This document shows, piece by piece, positions 2,708 through 11,299 of a stretch of 64,000 nucleotides of DNA. The translations under genes were made by a program, and so were the position numbers. The notes under the pieces were generated by a model. That model saw only the letters and a list, made by a program, of their open reading frames with translations, was not told the DNA's origin and searched no databases. Numbering within the stretch: the stretch's first letter is position 1; each line of letters starts with the position of its first letter. Location of the stretch: positions 128,001 through 192,000 of IMG/VR virus record IMGVR_UViG_3300028048_000045; one strand, 5' to 3'. The stretch comes from a virus. Its lineage: Duplodnaviria; Caudoviricetes.

Positions 2708-4009
2708 TTAGAACAGATCAGCAAGCTGTTCATTAGACATAGTCTTTGCACCAAAAGCATCCTGAAGTGCAGCGGCATCTTCTTTTACAGATGAGAAACC
2801 TACTGATTCAGATTTAAGAACTTCTGCTTTCTTTTCGTTTGATTCTGTCAAACGACGAAGATTTGCACGGAGATCTTCAACTACAGCATTCAATGAAGTG
2901 AAACCAAAGAATCCAATCATAGATTCTTCAATGAGATCTTTAGAAATAGAATCTACTCCATTGATACTCATCTTATCAATTTCAAAGAATACAGACATGA
3001 TGTCGCGAGACATAATGTCATAGTTTGTACGAATCTGCTTAGCAGCTTTTTCTTCTGCACCATCTTCAGTAAACTTAAGCATTTCAACAATACGTTTACA
3101 AGACTGTCCCTGTGGAATTGTGAACTGGAATTTGTTTTCATTGCTGATTGAAAGGAATGCTGAACATCCAGGGATACGAAGTGTGTTTACTTTATCCTGA
3201 AGATCCATACATTTCAATGATGAGTTCATTTCAATTCCAAGGAATTTGAGAATAGGCATAGTAATTCTCGCATTGATGATACGATACATTTCATCAGTAT
3301 TTGTATATTTAACTGATGAAGGCAAATTGTTATCAGCGATGAAGAAGTTAGCCAATCCCTTATCAATTGCATTCTGGATATCAACGAAACATTCAATTGT
3401 ATTCTGAAGATTCTGCTGACCTGCTGATACAGAACATTTTGGAACAAGACCGATTACAACTGGACGTGGAACTGTATTGGTGAGATCATCAATTACATAT
3501 TCCTTTCCATTGTATGAGAACTTCTCAGCCTTATTAACATAGTTAGTAAGGTAAGTTGTTAACATAGGTCCAATTCCAGAACCAGTACCACCATCAGCTG
3601 AGAAACAGTTGATAATGATTGTCTGTACTTCAGGATGGAACAGAACTTCTTCATAATAAGCTACGAATGTCTGAAGAGCATCGAATTTCTGTCCCTGGAA
3701 ATCTGCAGAATATCCTTTGAAGTATGCTTTTGCACGGTTTCTGTTTTTACCAGCACCATCAGCATTAGCACCTCCGATCTTGAATTTCTGAGCATCAGGA
3801 AGGTTCAACTGATCAAGATCCTGATCACTTGTGTTAACAGCAATCAGGTATGGGTTATTTGGTAAACAACTCTTAAGAGTCATACCAATGTTAGCTCCAC
3901 CCTGACCTTCGGTAATGATTACGAATCTTACCTTCTGTCTTGCCTTAGCCTGTGAGATTACAGGTTCTTCATTTCCAGCTGCAGCTGATTTTACATTTTC
4001 TTCTGCCAT
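2708..4009 (-). CDS. phuZ: PhuZ/TubZ-like phage tubulin GTPase
   Basis: Tubulin/FtsZ motifs in order: GQGGANIG, AVNTSDQD, GAGKNR, and the signature loop SADGGTGSGIGP. A T7-loop-like MDLQDK is also present. Confidence 0.88.
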   Translation of the reverse strand: MAEENVKSAAAGNEEPVISQAKARQKVRFVIITEGQGGANIGMTLKSCLPNNPYLIAVNTSDQDLDQLNLPDAQKFKIGGANADGAGKNRNRAKAYFKGYSADFQGQKFDALQTFVAYYEEVLFHPEVQTIIINCFSADGGTGSGIGPMLTTYLTNYVNKAEKFSYNGKEYVIDDLTNTVPRPVVIGLVPKCSVSAGQQNLQNTIECFVDIQNAIDKGLANFFIADNNLPSSVKYTNTDEMYRIINARITMPILKFLGIEMNSSLKCMDLQDKVNTLRIPGCSAFLSISNENKFQFTIPQGQSCKRIVEMLKFTEDGAEEKAAKQIRTNYDIMSRDIMSVFFEIDKMSINGVDSISKDLIEESMIGFFGFTSLNAVVEDLRANLRRLTESNEKKAEVLKSESVGFSSVKEDAAALQDAFGAKTMSNEQLADLF

Positions 4010-4075
4010 ATTTATTGGCCTCCTTAATACGTATTATGTGAAAAATATATAAGTATTTTAGTTTTTAATAAACAT

Positions 4076-4102
4076 AAAAGGTGCGAATTAACGCACCTTT
4101 TT
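4076..4102. terminator. Intrinsic terminator
   Basis: AAAAGGTGCG-aattaa-CGCACCTTTT inverted repeat. Confidence 0.8.
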
Positions 4103-4103
4103 A

Positions 4104-4871
4104 TTAGAAAATTTTAAATAAGTAATGACCTAATAACCAGAATCCGACTGATGCTAAATCAATACCTGTACCAATTAATATTTTTTCAACATCTTTATTC
4201 ATTATTCCAGTAGTCGCAATTCCAGTACCAACACCAATTCCAGTACCACTAATACCGAAACCTATTATTGCATTATTAAATGAACGTTCTAATCTAACTA
4301 CTTGTTTTTCTGCAAATTCAGCTCTCTCTAAAGCTTCACCAAATAATAAATTAGTATTATGTTCATCTTCATTATTAGAAACTAAAGCAGCTTCAATCTG
4401 TTTATTTTCTTCAACTACTTCATTCAGTTTCTGTGTTATTGTATCCACATGTTGTTGCAATAACATTGATTGTTCTTTCCATTGTGTCGCAGAGTCCAAG
4501 GACTCCTTCAGTGTAGATTTTATTGTATTCGAGTACGTCAAGGTTAGCTCCCTCAATTCGCTTACTGTATTCAGCTGATTGTTGAGCATAGTCTTCACTA
4601 CATCGTTTGATTTCTGTTGCGATGGAATCAAGTTTACCGTTGGAAATGGTGAGATCTGAAATAAGTTTATCTCGTTCGCTTGTAAGCCGTTCTTTTTCAG
4701 ATTTAAGAGTGGAAATGTCAGATTTGAGGCTCCTGATGGTTTCTGAAGCTCTCCCATCTGTTGATTTTGTCGCAATCCTATATCCGATTCCGATTCCTGC
4801 GCCAAGCAAGGCACAAGTACAACAAAAAATAATAACAATACGAATAATGATTTTTTTAATAGATTCTTCAT
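4104..4871 (-). CDS. Secreted coiled-coil protein with C-terminal Gly-rich hydrophobic segments; candidate outer spanin component
   Basis: Classical signal peptide MKNLLKKSLFVLLLFFVVLVPCLA/QE, a heptad region, and C-terminal AIIGFGISGTGIGVGTGIATTG and LIGTGIDLASVGFWLLG. Confidence 0.65.
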   Translation of the reverse strand: MKNLLKKSLFVLLLFFVVLVPCLAQESESDIGLRQNQQMGELQKPSGASNLTFPLLNLKKNGLQANEINLFQISPFPTVNLIPSQQKSNDVVKTMLNNQLNTVSELRELTLTYSNTIKSTLKESLDSATQWKEQSMLLQQHVDTITQKLNEVVEENKQIEAALVSNNEDEHNTNLLFGEALERAEFAEKQVVRLERSFNNAIIGFGISGTGIGVGTGIATTGIMNKDVEKILIGTGIDLASVGFWLLGHYLFKIF

Positions 4872-4875
4872 TCAC
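4420..4875 (-). CDS. Rz/i-spanin-like protein (N-terminal TM plus coiled coil), overlapping the previous gene in another frame
   Basis: GTG start 6 nt from AAGGAG. TM segment IIIRIVIIFCCTCALLGAGIGIG, then clear heptads IRSLKSDISTLKSEKERLTSERDKL, and periplasmic Cys residues. Confidence 0.6.
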   Translation of the reverse strand: MNEESIKKIIIRIVIIFCCTCALLGAGIGIGYRIATKSTDGRASETIRSLKSDISTLKSEKERLTSERDKLISDLTISNGKLDSIATEIKRCSEDYAQQSAEYSKRIEGANLDVLEYNKIYTEGVLGLCDTMERTINVIATTCGYNNTETE

Positions 4876-4900
4876 GATTTACTCCTTTCTTTAAAGAATA

Positions 4901-4931
4901 TATTAATTTGTCATAGGTCGACATATTAATA
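4901..4931. promoter_or_regulatory. Back-to-back divergent late-type promoters GACA-N6-TA
   Basis: Minus strand GACA AATTAA TA (4912-4901) and plus strand GACA TATTAA TA (4920-4931). Confidence 0.65.
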
Positions 4932-4963
4932 TAAAATCTAAACCAAATTAAGGAGTATTTCCT

Positions 4964-5803
4964 ATGATAAATAATTTTTATATAACAAAAGATGATATTA
5001 AAGATCCAAAAGATCAATGGTTCAGTCTTTATGATCCAGAATTAACAGCTGACATTATGAACGGTAAGAATACAATTATGGATTTGTTACATGCTATTGA
5101 AGATTTTAATGGTAATAAACCAAGAAATAAACGAATAATGTATTCGGTATATGTTAACGGATTTAATTTACCAATATTTGTAGCTAAAGCTAAATTCATA
5201 GGTGAGGATTTCATCTATTTCTATGCATACAATAATAATGGTGCATTGTATGTTACACAGAATAACAATAAACCAAATTTTATTGATGGTGTCTCAACAT
5301 ATTTAGTTAAAATCAACCAAATCACTGCTGTAAACTTTGGTTCTTTCAACAAAGAGGAATGTCCGTTCTTGAATAAAGAGAAATCTAATACTATTTCAGA
5401 AGATAAAATGTTATCTTTACTGACTGATGAGATAGCATCTTTCAATGCTTCTATAAGTTCGGGTGAATACAGAACTGCTATAAATCATTTCTGTATGTTT
5501 ATGAAAAATAATAAAATCAACTCATATGATTTTAATTATAATAGTGCAGCATTCAATAAATACATTATTCTTTGCGGTTCTTATATGTCTCTTATCAAAG
5601 ATATAGTTGGTCGCCATGATGATCCAACAATAAATGTCAACGATCCTAAAGTTCCTAATAAGATGTATTTCTTTGAAAATAAAGCTGCTATGGAAGAATT
5701 TGTTAAAACCGCTGAACATTCTAGAATGAATATTACTATTAATAATACATTCTATGAAGACGATATTAGCACTTTCAAATCTATCATCAATCCAAATCAT
5801 TAA
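4964..5803 (+). CDS. Hypothetical protein (279 aa)
   Basis: Long ORF with an AAGGAG RBS and a late-type motif upstream. Confidence 0.8.
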   Translation: MINNFYITKDDIKDPKDQWFSLYDPELTADIMNGKNTIMDLLHAIEDFNGNKPRNKRIMYSVYVNGFNLPIFVAKAKFIGEDFIYFYAYNNNGALYVTQNNNKPNFIDGVSTYLVKINQITAVNFGSFNKEECPFLNKEKSNTISEDKMLSLLTDEIASFNASISSGEYRTAINHFCMFMKNNKINSYDFNYNSAAFNKYIILCGSYMSLIKDIVGRHDDPTINVNDPKVPNKMYFFENKAAMEEFVKTAEHSRMNITINNTFYEDDISTFKSIINPNH

Positions 5804-5855: not shown

Positions 5856-8800
5856 TTATTGCCAACCAAATTCACCATTTTCATCAGAGTTTTCAAAATC
5901 TTTAGAAGCAAAATCGGTATCATGATACCATTTGTATTCTGGAGATTCTGGATCTGCTGCAGGATCGATAATAGAATTAGGACCTTCTACATCAGAATTA
6001 ACTTCATCAGAAGATAATGATTTACCACTTACTAAGAAATGTGATTTATTAGCTCGTAATGTAGCAAAATATTTTATTCGGTTATCAAATGATAATCTTA
6101 AAGATAGAATACTACCCATTCCATTACCATATACACCATTGGCTAAATTATTAAACCAATCGTTTAATGATAGTTTTGTATTGATTTCTCCACCATTTAA
6201 CAATACTTGATACCAGTTTAAATCTTCTGGTTCTGTAGGGAATAAATTATTTTCAACAGACATATCTCCAGGATAACTAGTGATAAAATCTTTAGTCATA
6301 TCATCATTAAAATCTTCACTGGTAACATCATCAAACATTTCGGTAGCAGTTTTATAATTAGTCAAATCTGTAAATAATGTGGAACTCATTAATGATGTTT
6401 GACAGCTTTCTTGAGTTTTTAAAGATGCATCAGTTACACCATTTAATAATTCATCAACAGTATAAGTGAAAGATAAATCTTCATTTTTACTAGACAATAA
6501 ATCAATAATTCCTTCATTGATTGTTGTTGATGAAGATTCCATCAGATTTTTAGCCAGTTTACTAAGTTCATAATATGATAATTGAGATATATAAGCATCT
6601 ATATCGAAAGCAGCAGTTTTTGCAAGAGAATCATAATCAAAAATTGTTTTATCACGATAAGTTCCAAAATAAACACAATTATGATGTTTATCATAAGCCA
6701 TACTTCCAATATCACCATCATGATATGCTGAAGTATCAGCATATTGATAATTTATACCATCATTGGTAGATTTAAACAATCCATATCCATTTTTAACATA
6801 TTTATTTCCAGAAGATTTATTTGCAAATAATGTAATACTTTTAGCTTTAACTATTTGATAATCAAATAATAAATCAGCTTTAGTAATATCACCAGTTGTT
6901 AAATTAGAATAGTTCATCAATTTATAAACTGATTCACCATTCTTAAATAAAATAACACCGTAATTTTTATTTTGAATATAGATATTATTATCATTTGGAT
7001 CAGATATATTTTCCCAACCGTAATCGCTTTGTTTTACAACTAATGAATCATCAGAAGGTGTTTCATCATCTATATCTTTAAAATAAGAATCAAGTATTGA
7101 AATGCTTACAGAAGAAGATGTTATGGTAATAGTGATGAAATCTAACGATTTATTTGGATAGATTACGATTACCGGTTTTTTAGAAGATGAAATATTAATA
7201 GGATTTATTACTTCTACACTAGTAATAGTATCAGCTATTTCCGAACGAATCAAATACATTATTTCTGTATCATTCTTATAAGGAATGAAATACAATTCTT
7301 TAGTAGTTGAACCGGTTCTTGTTAAGATTGTATAAATTCCATCATCGGTATCGTGTACATAATCTACATTATAAGTATCTAAAGGATATGTAGGATTGGA
7401 AATTTCTACTTCATTACTAAAACTAAACAATTCTCTTGATAACAAAACACTAGTGGATGTAATAGTTATCGGTGCTTTAGCTGCCATAACTTTAGATACA
7501 AATTTAGAATTGTCTCCAACACCTATAACTTTCATGTTATCATAAATATAACATGGGTTATTTCCACTTGCAAATGAATAAGTCTTACCCAATGTTAATG
7601 TTCTAGAACCTGTAAGTTGACCTGTTGTTATATCTACCTGTGCAAGAGCTAGCAAATGAACAATTCCGATATTAGTACTGAATAAAGCACCATACACATT
7701 CATAGGTGTAGGAACTATTGTAGTAGATTGACTTGATCCTCCACTACCAGAAGATGATTGTGAAGTATCTACTGGCCGTTGAACGTTAACAATTGTTCCT
7801 GTCACAACAGGTTTAACTCTAGTTATAGTAGAAACATTATCTGGTAAATCACAAGTATTAACATAAATACCACCAGCATCAAAATAACCTATTCCAGATT
7901 TTGAATCTTTTGGACAAACAAGTAAAGAATTATCTTCCAATTTCACAAAATAATGATCACTTCCTGTACTAGATAATCTAGAACATGTTGTAGTATTTAG
8001 TGTTGTATAATAACATCCTTTATTCTTTTTAGATGTTATGATTAATAATTTGTGTGATACGTCTATTTTAAATGAATAATCTTTAGGATTATCAGTAAAA
8101 CCAGACACACCTATTACTCTATTATTAGTCTGATCATATACATACAATGACTCTGAAATAGAGTTTTTATTAGTATCCATATCATTCAAACCAAAGTATA
8201 CAACACCATGATTATCAAATGTAATTACAAAGAATTCTCTATCTGTGATTTTTGTTCCAGAATTAGAAATAACGTCAATTTTATTTAAAGCGGTTCCTTC
8301 ATAAGTTCTTCTATAAATTCCGTTACCATCACCATTTATATTACTTTTACAAAAGAAAGATCCGATTTCTTTATCATTACTTACACCTATAGAATTCCAA
8401 TCTCCTGTACTATTTTCAGGTACATATAAAATTCTATTATTCTCCAAACTATAACCTGATACACCACGTAAATCAAATTTGTAATTAAATGTTTTAGTTA
8501 AATTATCTTTATATCTTGGAGCTGTTTTAATAAGTGGTTTAGTTTTATCATTTAAAGATTTGAGATGATCAATAGATGTAAAGAAATTTCTTTTTACAAG
8601 AGAATTTAATTGCTCTTTATCAAATTTATACAATCCTGCAATAGTTCCACTCATTTGAATATCGGCTGAACCCATAGCAAATACAAGATTGTAAAGTTTA
8701 GTAAGTTCTTCTTTATTCGTATCTTTTTCATTCTCTAAGAAATATTTATAAGAATTCTTTAAAGCATATATAGATACTAAGAATTTACCATTAGCCAATA

Positions 8801-11252
8801 ATGTTTTATGCGTAGATTTACTGAATACTTTAGAATTCAAATCATCATAATGTGTAATTCCATCAATACCAGACATCGATTTGATAAGTGTTTTGAAATA
8901 TGTATCAGGTTCATGATCTCTAGCTTTCATAGATTTATAGAAAGCTGTAAGATATTTAACTAATAAATCTCTAAGATTTAACATCGAAATTTCAGACATA
9001 AATCTAACAACATTATCAACATATAATTTTGCAGTATTTTCAGAATCCAATTGATTTAATATTTCTGCATAAGTTTCACCATTAGCACCATTTTCAGGAG
9101 TTAGATCTGTTATAGGATCAATTTCTGATATACTAGTTTTTGAAGAAGTACCAGATGTAGATGATGTGTTCGAAGCTTCTATAAGTTTTTCAATCATTGA
9201 TTCTAATTCAGGATCATCACTTATAGAATCGTCCCAAGTATATGCTTGTTTAAAATAATCACCAAACTGTGACCACATATTATTACCGGAACTAAATATT
9301 GTATCCATACCGTAATATGAATGTTCCTTAGGATTTAAAAGATAGTTTTCTACTTTCTTAAGATATACATATGCTGATGAATCAACAGCATTTTCCACAT
9401 CAAATAGTGCTTGAACAGCGTAAGATGAACCTAAAATACTTCCAACTTTAGATAACGATTGATTTAAAGTATTCATTGTTTTTATCTGACAACGTTTATA
9501 AAAATAATCGTTAACCATTCTATTTTTACCATAGATAGTAGCATTAGCTAAAAGAGCATAAATTTGTTTAATGTTTTTATTTCTTAAAACTATGTATTTA
9601 GTGTTTTTATTTAAAAAATCTATTTCATTTGCCTTATCAGCTAAACTTCCGACAAGTTCATATTTTTTAACAATATCACGATCATACATAGAAGCAATAC
9701 GTTTCTTATCTTTTTTAGCATTAATTCCTTTTCCAGATCTATTCCATAAACCTTTGGAATTATTTTCAAGTGTTTTAGATATACCATTTGTAATATTAGC
9801 TGAATATGAAACATTTTGATTATTTGCTACAGATTCCATAGCATTTGCTCTAAATGCTTTGATTTTAGCTGTAGCTCCAGCAGTACCAGATTTAACAGCA
9901 CTATTGACGGTATATCCTGCTTCAGACCAAGGACCTGTACCAGTTCCAGAAGCTATTTTAGCAGCATTTTTAGCTTCCAATGCTTCTGTAGCAGCTTTAG
10001 AAGCTTCTGATCTAGCACCTGATGCAGCAACATATTCATTATTTCTTTGAGTTGCTAATTCCTGAGTATACATATCGCTTTTAGTAGTATCATTGCCTTT
10101 ATAATCAGGCATCATTACTAAACAATCATTTTGTGTAAAAGCATATGCTCCATTATATTTATCATCTGTACTTCCATAATACTTAGGCAAAATAACAGTA
10201 TCGAAATCGGAAAAGAATTTTTGTACAGAAGAAGCATTTAAATATGTATAACTATGAACAATTAATGATTTAAAATAAACCAACATTAAACGTTCTATAC
10301 GTTTTACAAGTGTAGTATTTTCTAAATAAGCATTATATTTAGCTTCGATATCATTTTTAGTTTCAGCAGTTTCATAGTTGTAATTCTGATTCAAACCATT
10401 AGCTATACCTTCATAATCAATTATAGTTTCGGTATAATAATCCGTATTTTTATGGTTTTGAATAAAATCCCTACCGCTTTCATCATCTTTATTGATTTTA
10501 GTTTTTTCTTCACCAACTTGTATATAAAGATTAGCACAATTAGGTATTTCATCATAAGTTACTGACTTAAATCCTTTAATAGGTTTTGAATACATTTTTA
10601 ATGATGATTCTGTTACAACTAAATCAGATCTAATTTTGATTAGTTGATCGTATATTTTACGGAATATATAGTATAAATTATTAACGCATGAATGTTCGGC
10701 ACATAAAGCTAAATCTTTTTCAAGATCACTATAATCACGAACATTGTAATCTATACCATATTGCTCATCTATAAATTTCAAACTTATAGTCCAGTCTCGT
10801 TGTAAAGCTGAAGAACGAATATAATGTTTATTATATGCTAAATCTGCACCAGCTTCATATAAACCCTTTAGTGTTAAAGCAAAAGCACTATCAGGAATAT
10901 ACATCATCGAACGTATATTATTATACAAATCTTCTACAAGATTTGATACAAAGTTTATAGAAGCATTTTGAAGTTGTCTCAGGGCATCCGAACCCATATC
11001 TTTCAGTATATCTAATGCTGAAAGTGATAAGTTTTTGAAAAATCCTCCTAAATTCGAAAGAATGCCAGAGAGGTTAAATCCTTTAAAGGATTTCAATAAT
11101 TTATTTGCGTTTATGATGTCTTTTCCCATAAATGAGTCAAGACCACCAAGTGAATCTAATCCGAAGCCTTTTAATTTACTTGAAAAGCCACCTTTTCCAG
11201 ATGCTTCAACGTTATTTTTATAATTTTCAAATGAGTTTGTATTAATACCCAT
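5856..11252 (-). CDS. Very large probable virion (tail/baseplate-associated) protein; helical N-half and beta-rich, propeller-like C-half
   Basis: ORF of about 1800 aa. Start moved to the ATG at 11252 (MGINT...), which has GGAG upstream; the longer TTG start lies within the promoter motif. The C-half is rich in S/T/N/G/Y. Confidence 0.7.
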   Translation of the reverse strand: MGINTNSFENYKNNVEASGKGGFSSKLKGFGLDSLGGLDSFMGKDIINANKLLKSFKGFNLSGILSNLGGFFKNLSLSALDILKDMGSDALRQLQNASINFVSNLVEDLYNNIRSMMYIPDSAFALTLKGLYEAGADLAYNKHYIRSSALQRDWTISLKFIDEQYGIDYNVRDYSDLEKDLALCAEHSCVNNLYYIFRKIYDQLIKIRSDLVVTESSLKMYSKPIKGFKSVTYDEIPNCANLYIQVGEEKTKINKDDESGRDFIQNHKNTDYYTETIIDYEGIANGLNQNYNYETAETKNDIEAKYNAYLENTTLVKRIERLMLVYFKSLIVHSYTYLNASSVQKFFSDFDTVILPKYYGSTDDKYNGAYAFTQNDCLVMMPDYKGNDTTKSDMYTQELATQRNNEYVAASGARSEASKAATEALEAKNAAKIASGTGTGPWSEAGYTVNSAVKSGTAGATAKIKAFRANAMESVANNQNVSYSANITNGISKTLENNSKGLWNRSGKGINAKKDKKRIASMYDRDIVKKYELVGSLADKANEIDFLNKNTKYIVLRNKNIKQIYALLANATIYGKNRMVNDYFYKRCQIKTMNTLNQSLSKVGSILGSSYAVQALFDVENAVDSSAYVYLKKVENYLLNPKEHSYYGMDTIFSSGNNMWSQFGDYFKQAYTWDDSISDDPELESMIEKLIEASNTSSTSGTSSKTSISEIDPITDLTPENGANGETYAEILNQLDSENTAKLYVDNVVRFMSEISMLNLRDLLVKYLTAFYKSMKARDHEPDTYFKTLIKSMSGIDGITHYDDLNSKVFSKSTHKTLLANGKFLVSIYALKNSYKYFLENEKDTNKEELTKLYNLVFAMGSADIQMSGTIAGLYKFDKEQLNSLVKRNFFTSIDHLKSLNDKTKPLIKTAPRYKDNLTKTFNYKFDLRGVSGYSLENNRILYVPENSTGDWNSIGVSNDKEIGSFFCKSNINGDGNGIYRRTYEGTALNKIDVISNSGTKITDREFFVITFDNHGVVYFGLNDMDTNKNSISESLYVYDQTNNRVIGVSGFTDNPKDYSFKIDVSHKLLIITSKKNKGCYYTTLNTTTCSRLSSTGSDHYFVKLEDNSLLVCPKDSKSGIGYFDAGGIYVNTCDLPDNVSTITRVKPVVTGTIVNVQRPVDTSQSSSGSGGSSQSTTIVPTPMNVYGALFSTNIGIVHLLALAQVDITTGQLTGSRTLTLGKTYSFASGNNPCYIYDNMKVIGVGDNSKFVSKVMAAKAPITITSTSVLLSRELFSFSNEVEISNPTYPLDTYNVDYVHDTDDGIYTILTRTGSTTKELYFIPYKNDTEIMYLIRSEIADTITSVEVINPINISSSKKPVIVIYPNKSLDFITITITSSSVSISILDSYFKDIDDETPSDDSLVVKQSDYGWENISDPNDNNIYIQNKNYGVILFKNGESVYKLMNYSNLTTGDITKADLLFDYQIVKAKSITLFANKSSGNKYVKNGYGLFKSTNDGINYQYADTSAYHDGDIGSMAYDKHHNCVYFGTYRDKTIFDYDSLAKTAAFDIDAYISQLSYYELSKLAKNLMESSSTTINEGIIDLLSSKNEDLSFTYTVDELLNGVTDASLKTQESCQTSLMSSTLFTDLTNYKTATEMFDDVTSEDFNDDMTKDFITSYPGDMSVENNLFPTEPEDLNWYQVLLNGGEINTKLSLNDWFNNLANGVYGNGMGSILSLRLSFDNRIKYFATLRANKSHFLVSGKSLSSDEVNSDVEGPNSIIDPAADPESPEYKWYHDTDFASKDFENSDENGEFGWQ

Positions 11253-11274
11253 AATAAGCTCCATAGTGTAAATA

Positions 11275-11286
11275 TATAGGTTTGTC
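11275..11286 (-). promoter_or_regulatory. Late-type promoter GACA-N6-TA
   Basis: Minus strand GACA AACCTA TA. Confidence 0.6.
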
Positions 11287-11299
11287 AAAGCCTAAAAAA

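Follow-up and report, generated by a model that had tools for sequence, protein, structure and literature searches.

Overlapping lysis genes are well known, and in phage lambda two lysis membrane products, S105 and S107, arise from closely spaced starts behind one ribosome-binding region. In this study, a pair of overlapping open reading frames (ORFs), ORF-A and ORF-B, was analysed in a 64,000-nt stretch of viral DNA, hereafter the window, which represents bases 128001-192000 of a 276,071-bp virus record (IMGVR_UViG_3300028048_000045; CheckV completeness approximately 99%; G+C content approximately 28-30%). An initial annotation had read the pair as a candidate non-canonical spanin system. The two-component spanins, such as lambda Rz/Rz1, P2 LysB/LysC and T4 PseT.3/PseT.2, are defined in Kongari et al. 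2018 (PMC6139136). In Rz/Rz1, the DNA for the flexible linker of one protein also carries the functional part of the other gene, and both the outer-membrane spanin (o-spanin) and the unimolecular spanin (u-spanin) require an outer-membrane lipoprotein signal (PMC6139136). The same work gives the classical cassette order as holin, endolysin and spanin, and reports that approximately 13% of the phages of Gram-negative hosts have no identifiable spanin (PMC6139136).

Results

Two genes in different frames behind one Shine-Dalgarno site

On the minus strand of the window, AAGGAG (4882-4887) is followed in order by TAAATC, a GTG (4875-4873), a single A and an ATG (4871-4869), and the two start codons open different frames as follows:

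4882-4887, minus strand: shared Shine-Dalgarno sequence AAGGAG, 6 nt from the GTG of ORF-B and 10 nt from the ATG of ORF-A
4420..4875, minus strand: ORF-B, 151 amino acids, GTG start
4104..4871, minus strand: ORF-A, 255 amino acids, ATG start

The positions, the spacings of 6 and 10 nt and the two frames had been given correctly in the initial annotation, and the 151-aa product is nested in the 255-aa gene as it had stated, with all but the first 4 nt of ORF-B contained in ORF-A. No other same-strand overlapping pair with both ORFs of at least 100 amino acids was present in the 64-kb window. The comparative evidence, which is strong, argues that ORF-A and ORF-B are both genuine genes, which overlap in different frames and start together from one Shine-Dalgarno site, and the corresponding claim of the initial annotation was borne out.

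Database searches with ORF-A returned 21 clusters of approximately 255 amino acids with 59-92% identity, and searches with ORF-B returned 47 clusters of 151-153 amino acids. The DNA of 17 related loci was taken from pig-gut and other metagenomes; IMG/VR gave one relative and the JGI metagenomes gave three. No match to the locus or to ORF-A was found by BLAST among 50,697 phage records. In all related loci of this jumbo-phage clade, (A)AGGAG precedes the GTGnATG double start. The double start was intact in 17/17 loci, with ORF-A open over 255-258 codons and ORF-B over 151-154 codons, and the third frame was full of stops. The initial annotation had suggested a test of whether both frames stay open in homologs, and each was stop-free at full length in all 17; 14 of these sequences were aligned, with 70-92% nucleotide identity among them.

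From each protein and the codon usage of the phage itself, the number of stops expected in the alternative frame was calculated. For the B protein, the expectation was 5-8 A-frame stops within B codons 1-105, and none was present; the probability of finding none was 2e-4 to 7e-4 in three sequences, the values for the other sequences being an artefact, since the TGA ahead of the ATG of A was taken for a stop. For the A protein, the expectation was 4-7 B-frame stops over A residues 105-151, and again none was present (probability approximately 0.003 or less). Directly past the stop codon of ORF-B, the B frame contains 17-23 stops in 104 codons. Moreover, NTA codons are nearly absent from B codons 1-105 (pooled counts: TTA 2/127 Leu, ATA 3/201 Ile, GTA 0/30 Val), whereas elsewhere in the phage TTA, ATA and GTA make up 19-41% of the codons for those amino acids. 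As NTA codons in B would create stops in the A frame, their scarcity in this region represents stop avoidance.

Variability by codon position and the pairwise ratio of nonsynonymous to synonymous change (pN/pS) were determined for 13 non-identical sequences of 70-92% nucleotide identity, with the following results:

A codons 2-24: pN/pS 0.59 in frame A and 0.97 in frame B; signal peptide of A constrained
A codons 26-95: pN/pS 0.97 in frame A and 0.47 in frame B; B constrained, A apparently neutral
A codons 96-110: pN/pS 0.41 in frame A and 1.02 in frame B; all three codon positions unusually conserved
A codons 111-255: pN/pS 0.27-0.50 in frame A and approximately 1 in frame B; A constrained

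In the linker region of A, variability peaks at codon position 2 of A, which is position 3 of B. Cys22 and Gln25 of A were invariant in 22 sequences. Cys22 is encoded across Leu23 of B, and this leucine was TTG in 14/14 sequences, although TTG accounts for only 15/127 of the pooled leucines in B codons 1-105, which indicates that selection on A acts on B at a synonymous site. Among the prophages, the two closest pairs reached 0.08-0.24 in the variability of codon position 3 of A within the overlap, a lower level than the 0.48-0.80 outside. Both frames are therefore open beyond chance, with selection detectable in each.

Gene callers choose only one of the two ORFs, taking A in 21 clusters and B together with a truncated 114-aa A' in 47 clusters, and the other product is consequently always absent from databases. 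Public gene calls are inconsistent in this respect (clusters P0003-P0022 versus P0024-P0070; loci L016-L018), and no record carried both full products. The annotation of B followed by a 114-aa A' from an internal GTG (V142) was ruled out, because the A-type codon pattern reaches upstream to approximately codon 96 and the A frame is open to its ATG in all loci. A further cluster, P0023 (229 aa, from an ENA contig of 1227 bp), is A-like over approximately 160 residues and continues as a sequence similar to C-5 cytosine methyltransferases (PF00145); it is probably a chimeric assembly or a recombination junction.

Distant relatives in Treponemataceae

A profile search of 1.84 billion representative proteins gave only 16 matches, which included distant A homologues of 224-263 amino acids with approximately 22-26% identity. 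These proteins have a signal peptide, a low-complexity linker rich in Ser, Asn, Gln and Thr, a coiled coil with (S)NxED, and a Gly-rich hairpin ending in GHYxFxWW. As the distant homologues have the full A layout, full-length A is ancestral and encoded in a single frame, and not a fusion. The initial annotation had described a Q/N/L/P-rich overprinted region in ORF-A; the coiled coil of B is indeed encoded over it, but it is better seen as an ancestral, unconstrained and disordered linker of A, since the distant homologues have an equivalent low-complexity linker.

One relative was found in the Treponema sp. UBA937 genome bin, in which an A-like ORF (3719..4486, 255 aa) is overlapped by a 166-aa ORF (3715..4215) and the start region reads GAGGAAGTATC-ATG-A-ATG. 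The A-like protein matched ORF-A with an E-value of 4e-8. The 166-aa product consists of a transmembrane (TM) helix and further helices and shares 27% identity with B over 141 aa (E 5e-5). In total, a search of 218 Treponemataceae genomes yielded five credible loci. All five have a B-type ORF (TM and helices) in the same relative frame behind one Shine-Dalgarno site, and their starts are ATGaATG in four cases and ATGTG, with the A start first, in one. A sixth and more distant contig (L032) also has an ATGTG start, and its B-type frame is open over approximately 155 codons, with 25 stops in the other frame. This 32-kb, phage-like contig (Logan SRR22936630) carries, in addition to the pair, Thy1, a type IB topoisomerase-like gene and a flagellin gene (Flagellin_N/C), an unusual combination for a phage.

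An even sample of 400 further Spirochaetota genomes gave no further credible match, and a viral scan with the distant sub-family found none; in the index of the scan, the Treponema A-like protein had no look-alike elsewhere. The two-frame arrangement is ancient, judging from its retention in Treponemataceae prophages at approximately 22-27% protein identity, and the family is limited to Treponemataceae phages and prophages among the genomes searched. The host of the jumbo phage is probably a gut Treponema.

Predicted structure of the two products

In ORF-B, a short N-terminus of basic character precedes a TM helix (hydrophobic core at aa 9-31, nt 4783-4851), which is followed by helices at aa 41-108 and 114-142 (nt 4450-4755). 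Cys residues are conserved in B at approximately positions 94, 129 and 143. An AlphaFold2 (AF2) model built on 25 sequences had a mean predicted local distance difference test score (pLDDT) of 83, with helices at aa 3-36, 41-108 and 114-142. The best 19-residue segment of the TM helix had a Kyte-Doolittle (KD) hydropathy of 2.46 (range 2.2-2.7), and its summed apparent insertion energy was negative. In its predicted topology, an N-terminal TM helix followed by a helical domain, ORF-B has the layout of an inner-membrane spanin (i-spanin), and it is modelled as a bitopic membrane protein with a helical hairpin of approximately 110 residues.

ORF-A is divided into the following segments:

4800..4871, minus strand: signal-peptide-like N-terminus, aa 1-24 (...VLVPCLA, then QE); the same DNA encodes the TM helix of B in the other frame
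4617..4799, minus strand: disordered linker, aa 25-85, over the most constrained part of B (first periplasmic helix)
4272..4616, minus strand: long helix, aa 86-200, with the conserved SNNEDEHN motif; its first approximately 65 codons lie over the weakly constrained tail of B
4107..4271, minus strand: C-terminal Gly-rich helical hairpin, aa 201-255, ending in WLLGHYxFK; weakly hydrophobic (KD 1.4-1.5)

That the same DNA encodes a membrane anchor in B and a signal-peptide-like segment in A, as had been claimed, was supported by these sequence features. The N-terminus of A has a K-rich n-region and an h-region of Leu, Phe and Val, followed by C-L-A/QE, and, as read from the sequences, its c-region fits the -3/-1 rule for signal peptidase I. 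The c-regions of the jumbo-phage clade are C-L-A/QE, C-L-G/QD and C-Y-S/QD, and those of distant homologues are S-L-S-A/LQ and V-V-S-A/QA. The signal-peptide cores are strongly hydrophobic (KD 2.2-2.7), with summed apparent insertion energies of -3.5 to +2.3. Where the lipobox pattern ([LVI][ASTVI][GAS]C or a close variant) would be expected, the A sequences read LVPC, VYC or LVC, and the distant homologues P0074, P0075 and P0085 and the copy in locus L021 have no Cys in the h- or c-region. The initial annotation was thus right that a canonical lipobox is lacking (LVPC) and that the nesting is reversed relative to lambda Rz/Rz1.

The AF2 model of A, built on 22 sequences, showed a helix at aa 2-25, a disordered stretch at aa 25-83 (pLDDT <50), a continuous helix at aa 86-225 (pLDDT 88-97 up to approximately residue 190), a turn and a helix at aa 228-254. 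The SNNEDEHN motif of the long helix is common to the distant homologues, and the invariant Gly and Trp of the hairpin extend across the wide family. The C-terminal helices are marginal as membrane segments (KD 1.1-1.9, summed apparent insertion energies positive); Gly, Thr and Ser are abundant in them, and one helix has a nearly invariant Asp. The hairpin could be a stable inner-membrane hairpin or, equally, a segment that enters the membrane from the periplasm.

When A, B and the corresponding Treponema proteins were searched against Pfam, PHROGs and NCBIfam, nothing but coiled-coil noise below threshold emerged. In a Pfam search with the hairpin alone at E up to 10, no glycine-zipper family was found and one weak holin match appeared. 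Foldseek comparison of the AF2 models of A and B with BFVD gave nothing at E<=0.001, as expected for proteins made of long helices. The complex prediction for A 84-203 with B 38-151 scored 0.24 (mark 0.32), a result that weighs neither for nor against binding of A to B.

Genomic context of the pair

In the Treponemataceae prophages, the genes around the pair are arranged as follows:

UBA937 prophage (L019/L020): 211-aa one-TM protein, Amidase_2 (E 4.7e-18), B/A pair, opposite-strand integrase, host genes (TatD, CheA-like, CheX)
L029: 125-aa TM protein, 210-aa Peptidase_C39_2 protein (E 2e-9; PHROG endolysin E 7.8e-5), pair
L028: 112-aa TM protein, 162-aa CHAP-like protein, pair
L030: 75-aa two-TM protein immediately before the pair
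L031: reverse transcriptase and 99-aa secreted protein before the pair, integrase after it

The pair therefore lies directly after a peptidoglycan hydrolase in 3/5 prophages, namely an Amidase_2 protein, a C39-like endolysin and the CHAP-like protein. The assignment of the last is a lead only: this 162-aa protein has CHAP-/Tae4-like language-model neighbours, and its structural neighbours are fused to LysM, SH3 or GH19 modules. In the same three prophages a small TM protein precedes the hydrolase and the genes are near the prophage end, and in UBA937 the Amidase_2 stop codon overlaps the starts of the pair. The order of holin candidate, endolysin and pair matches the classical cassette order (PMC6139136). 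A location within a lysis cassette was seen in L019/L020, L029 and probably L028; it was seen neither in the window nor in L021 or L032. The lysis role put forward by the initial annotation gained contextual support from the prophages, in which the homologous pair follows Amidase_2, C39-like and CHAP-like genes, and none from the window, where the pair lies outside a lysis cassette. In the Treponemataceae genome G036, the region just upstream of the pair (L031, 6884-9779) encodes the reverse transcriptase (RVT_1, E 1.7e-22) and small accessory ORFs, and is possibly a diversity-generating retroelement.

In the window, the following signals flank the pair:

4899-4912, minus strand: promoter-like motif GACAAATTAATATA, upstream of the ORF-B/ORF-A pair, present and conserved in homologous loci
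4920-4933, plus strand: mirror copy GACATATTAATATA of the motif, facing a divergent 279-aa gene
4076-4101, minus strand: intrinsic-terminator-like hairpin and T-run directly after the ORF-A stop; 10-bp stem with 5 GC pairs

GACA-N6-TATA thus occurs in two back-to-back copies on opposite strands between the pair and the 279-aa gene (4899-4933), and a block of approximately 30 nt around these motifs is near-identical across homologous loci. The motif had been called a late-type promoter. It is present and conserved, but RACA-N6-TATA is not enriched in the window (17 found versus 13.2 expected), and the late-type designation was not confirmed. The terminator-like hairpin lies right after the ORF-A stop, so that the pair is a transcription unit of its own; the search for such hairpins found one versus 0.5 expected.

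The pair has the divergent gene of unknown function on one side and a tubulin/PhuZ-like gene on the other. The latter encodes 433 amino acids (2708-4009, minus strand) with sub-threshold similarity to tubulin/FtsZ (Pfam E 4.6e-5) and PhuZ (PHROG E 3.6e-4), and all of the longer related contigs show it in synteny with the pair. The divergent 279-aa ORF (4964-5803, plus strand) and an 1810-aa ORF (5856-11288, minus strand) had no Pfam match, and the former had no PHROG match either; their synteny is kept in relatives (278 aa and 1801-1816 aa, respectively).

Discussion

The results described above show that the two genes share their DNA by complementary constraint. The functional helix of B is encoded over the linker of A (aa 25-95), which is unconstrained and needs only to remain open, and the long helix of A is encoded over the tail of B (aa 111-151), which is weakly constrained. 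Two other accounts of the same ORFs were considered. One of them, in which only one of the frames has a function and composition gave rise to the other ORF, would fit the choice of only one ORF by gene callers (A in 21 clusters, B with the 114-aa A' in 47) and the portions of each ORF with pN/pS of approximately 1. It is hardly credible in view of the segments in which one frame is under clear purifying selection where the other looks neutral, the strong stop-avoiding codon use, the retention of both ORFs in relatives of approximately 22-27% identity and the stop-filled third frame. The other account is a single fusion protein, translated from the GTG in frame B with a programmed +1 frameshift near codons 100-110 into frame A, or an uncorrected indel that mimics it; the product would be a TM helix with a long coiled coil and the hairpin. 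The passage of constraint from frame B to frame A at A codons 96-110, with all three codon positions unusually conserved at that switch, is what such a fusion would predict, and it is nevertheless very improbable. It leaves unexplained the conserved ATG and open frame of A in 17/17 loci, the constraint on the signal peptide of A, the retention of Cys22 by a codon choice that is synonymous in B, and the fact that the B frame is open exactly to codon 151. Furthermore, the distant homologues are A proteins encoded at full length in a single frame, signal peptide and linker included; the crossover shows neither a slippery sequence nor a shift motif next to a stop; and 17 independent assemblies exclude a sequencing error.

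With modest confidence, we infer that a spanin-like final step of lysis is the best-supported function of the two overlapping genes. Treponema is diderm, and phages of this likely host therefore need an outer-membrane step. Both extracytoplasmic helical domains would sit in the periplasm of the diderm spirochaete host, and the pair would act after holin and endolysin as the last lysis step, as an analogue of the spanins, coupling the inner and outer membranes or disrupting them. ORF-B would take the role of the i-spanin, and ORF-A would stand in for the lipoprotein o-spanin, with its hairpin inserted into a membrane from the periplasmic side; co-initiation at one ribosome-binding site (RBS) would keep both products co-expressed. 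The initial annotation had further proposed that the outer partner is anchored by its C-terminal helices, which their weak hydrophobicity would allow, and that dual initiation sets the stoichiometry, which is conjectural. A more specific proposal, which is tentative and which we consider rather doubtful as a whole, is that the pair represents a lipoprotein-independent class of two-component spanins specific to spirochaete (Treponema) phages, with a secreted long-helix partner anchored by a glycine-zipper hairpin and obligatory two-frame co-translation, and that this coding arrangement predates the split between the jumbo phages and the small temperate phages of this host.

Several observations weigh against a spanin-like pair. 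Both products are predicted from sequence and their lysis activity is putative, and the host assignment is based on prophage homologues only. The tail of B (aa 111-151) and the linker of A show no constraint at the amino-acid level, and their translation is argued by open frames alone. Searches of Pfam, PHROGs, NCBIfam and BFVD revealed no family, spanin, holin or otherwise, that resembles the pair in sequence or fold. A lacks a canonical lipobox, and the signal peptides of most distant homologues contain no Cys; a protein with the Sec signal and the two hydrophobic C-terminal helices of A might simply reside in the inner membrane. The jumbo-phage pair is outside any lysis cassette in the window, and a search of the phage's own genome with the Amidase_2 profile and the Treponema amidase gave no match. 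The upstream neighbours in L021 are a reverse transcriptase and a small secreted protein, and the neighbours in L032 are not lysis genes. Lysis genes can be scattered in jumbo phages, and the lone pair in the window therefore neither supports nor excludes a lysis role.

Among other functions, the pair might act in the envelope outside lysis, in superinfection exclusion, in a lysogenic-conversion ('moron') surface function at the prophage end, or in membrane anchoring or remodelling during jumbo-phage infection. This seems unlikely, although the pair is the last gene before the integrase in L020 and L021, a typical moron position, has no lysis neighbours in the window or in L032, and adjoins a tubulin-like gene in the jumbo phage. 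In the jumbo phage, which looks strictly lytic, the pair is under strong purifying selection and has a promoter-like motif of its own, common to other genes of the window, and 3/5 prophage copies directly follow a hydrolase with start/stop overlap or short gaps. The prophage cassettes would also accommodate a holin/antiholin or other lysis-timing pair, in which the hairpin of A forms the membrane lesion, B (one TM helix and a periplasmic domain, like T4 T/RI) is the regulator, and the double start corresponds, in two frames, to the dual start of lambda S105/S107. Holin genes with dual starts are known (lambda S), the hairpin is rich in small residues like holin or SAR-type (signal-anchor-release) helices, and the hairpin of one distant homologue had a sub-threshold match to Phage_holin_10 (E 0.006, 17 bits, cut-off 27). 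This role is improbable all the same, for one or two small TM proteins ahead of the hydrolase are already available as holin candidates in every prophage cassette, the pair comes after the endolysin and not before it, and the hydrophobicity of the hairpin is marginal for a stable TM segment. A cleavable signal peptide with approximately 175 extracytoplasmic residues is not a known holin layout, and the pair departs from the holin definition of a small protein with stable TM domains, no cleavable signal peptide, a family match and a dual start in one frame.

The spanin-like reading and the coding arrangement beneath it are of interest in several respects. The locus is a clean and deeply conserved case of two unrelated proteins started in two frames at one bacterial-type ribosome-binding site. 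It shows a disordered linker that gives coding room to a second gene, and provides a test case for the evolution of overlapping genes and for start-site selection. As a lipoprotein-free module that follows the endolysin, it is a concrete and testable candidate for the missing outer-membrane step, and it links a 276-kb jumbo phage to Treponemataceae hosts. In the library covered by a full-text literature search, no paper linking spanins with spirochaete phages and none on Treponema jumbo phages with such a module was found, and neither was a description of outer-membrane disruption by spirochaete phages.

Comparison with known systems

Compared with the two-component spanins, the pair likewise consists of two envelope proteins in different frames of shared DNA, and the complementary constraint, with the functional part of one gene over the linker of its partner, is that of Rz/Rz1. 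The size and layout of B (151 aa, N-terminal TM domain and two periplasmic helices) are those of an i-spanin, and in the prophage relatives the pair follows the endolysin and the host is diderm. In those systems, the o-spanin gene is embedded in the i-spanin gene, overlaps its 3' end or lies downstream of it, and has its own start signals; here, in contrast, the i-spanin-like gene lies inside its larger partner and both start at one RBS. The partner A also differs in its length of 255 aa, its helical fold, its C-terminal hairpin and its departure from the canonical lipoprotein signal. Moreover, the pair has no sequence similarity to any spanin family, and its function is putative.

The u-spanin of phage T1, gp11, resembles A in that an N-terminal secretion signal and C-terminal hydrophobic helices could allow one chain to cross the periplasm, and Cys22 in the signal peptide of A is invariant in the jumbo-phage clade. 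However, gp11 needs its lipoprotein signal (PMC6139136), whereas the corresponding sequence in A is LVPC, VYC or LVC, and the Cys is missing from distant homologues. The C-terminal helices of A are weakly hydrophobic, and A is always accompanied by B. Predictions give gp11 a beta-rich periplasmic domain, in contrast to the one long helix of A. As A lies outside the definitions of both o-spanin and u-spanin, the pair would be a spanin analogue by position and architecture, and not a member of a spanin family.

The closely spaced double start behind one ribosome-binding region recalls lambda S105/S107, but S105 and S107 are read in one and the same frame, with a difference of two residues, whereas the products here are unrelated proteins in different frames. 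The hairpin of A also resembles the SlyB/Pcp-type glycine-zipper two-TM hairpins of outer-membrane lipoproteins and the weakly hydrophobic SAR-type helices. Being Gly/Ser/Thr-rich and marginally hydrophobic, it might likewise enter or leave the membrane from the periplasm, hydropathy being the only part compared; unlike the SlyB/Pcp-type proteins, A has neither a Pfam glycine-zipper match at E up to 10 nor a lipid anchor. The pair is set apart by its reversed nesting, by a double start that opens two frames at one RBS, by the lack of a lipoprotein partner and by the conservation of this arrangement down to approximately 22% identity.

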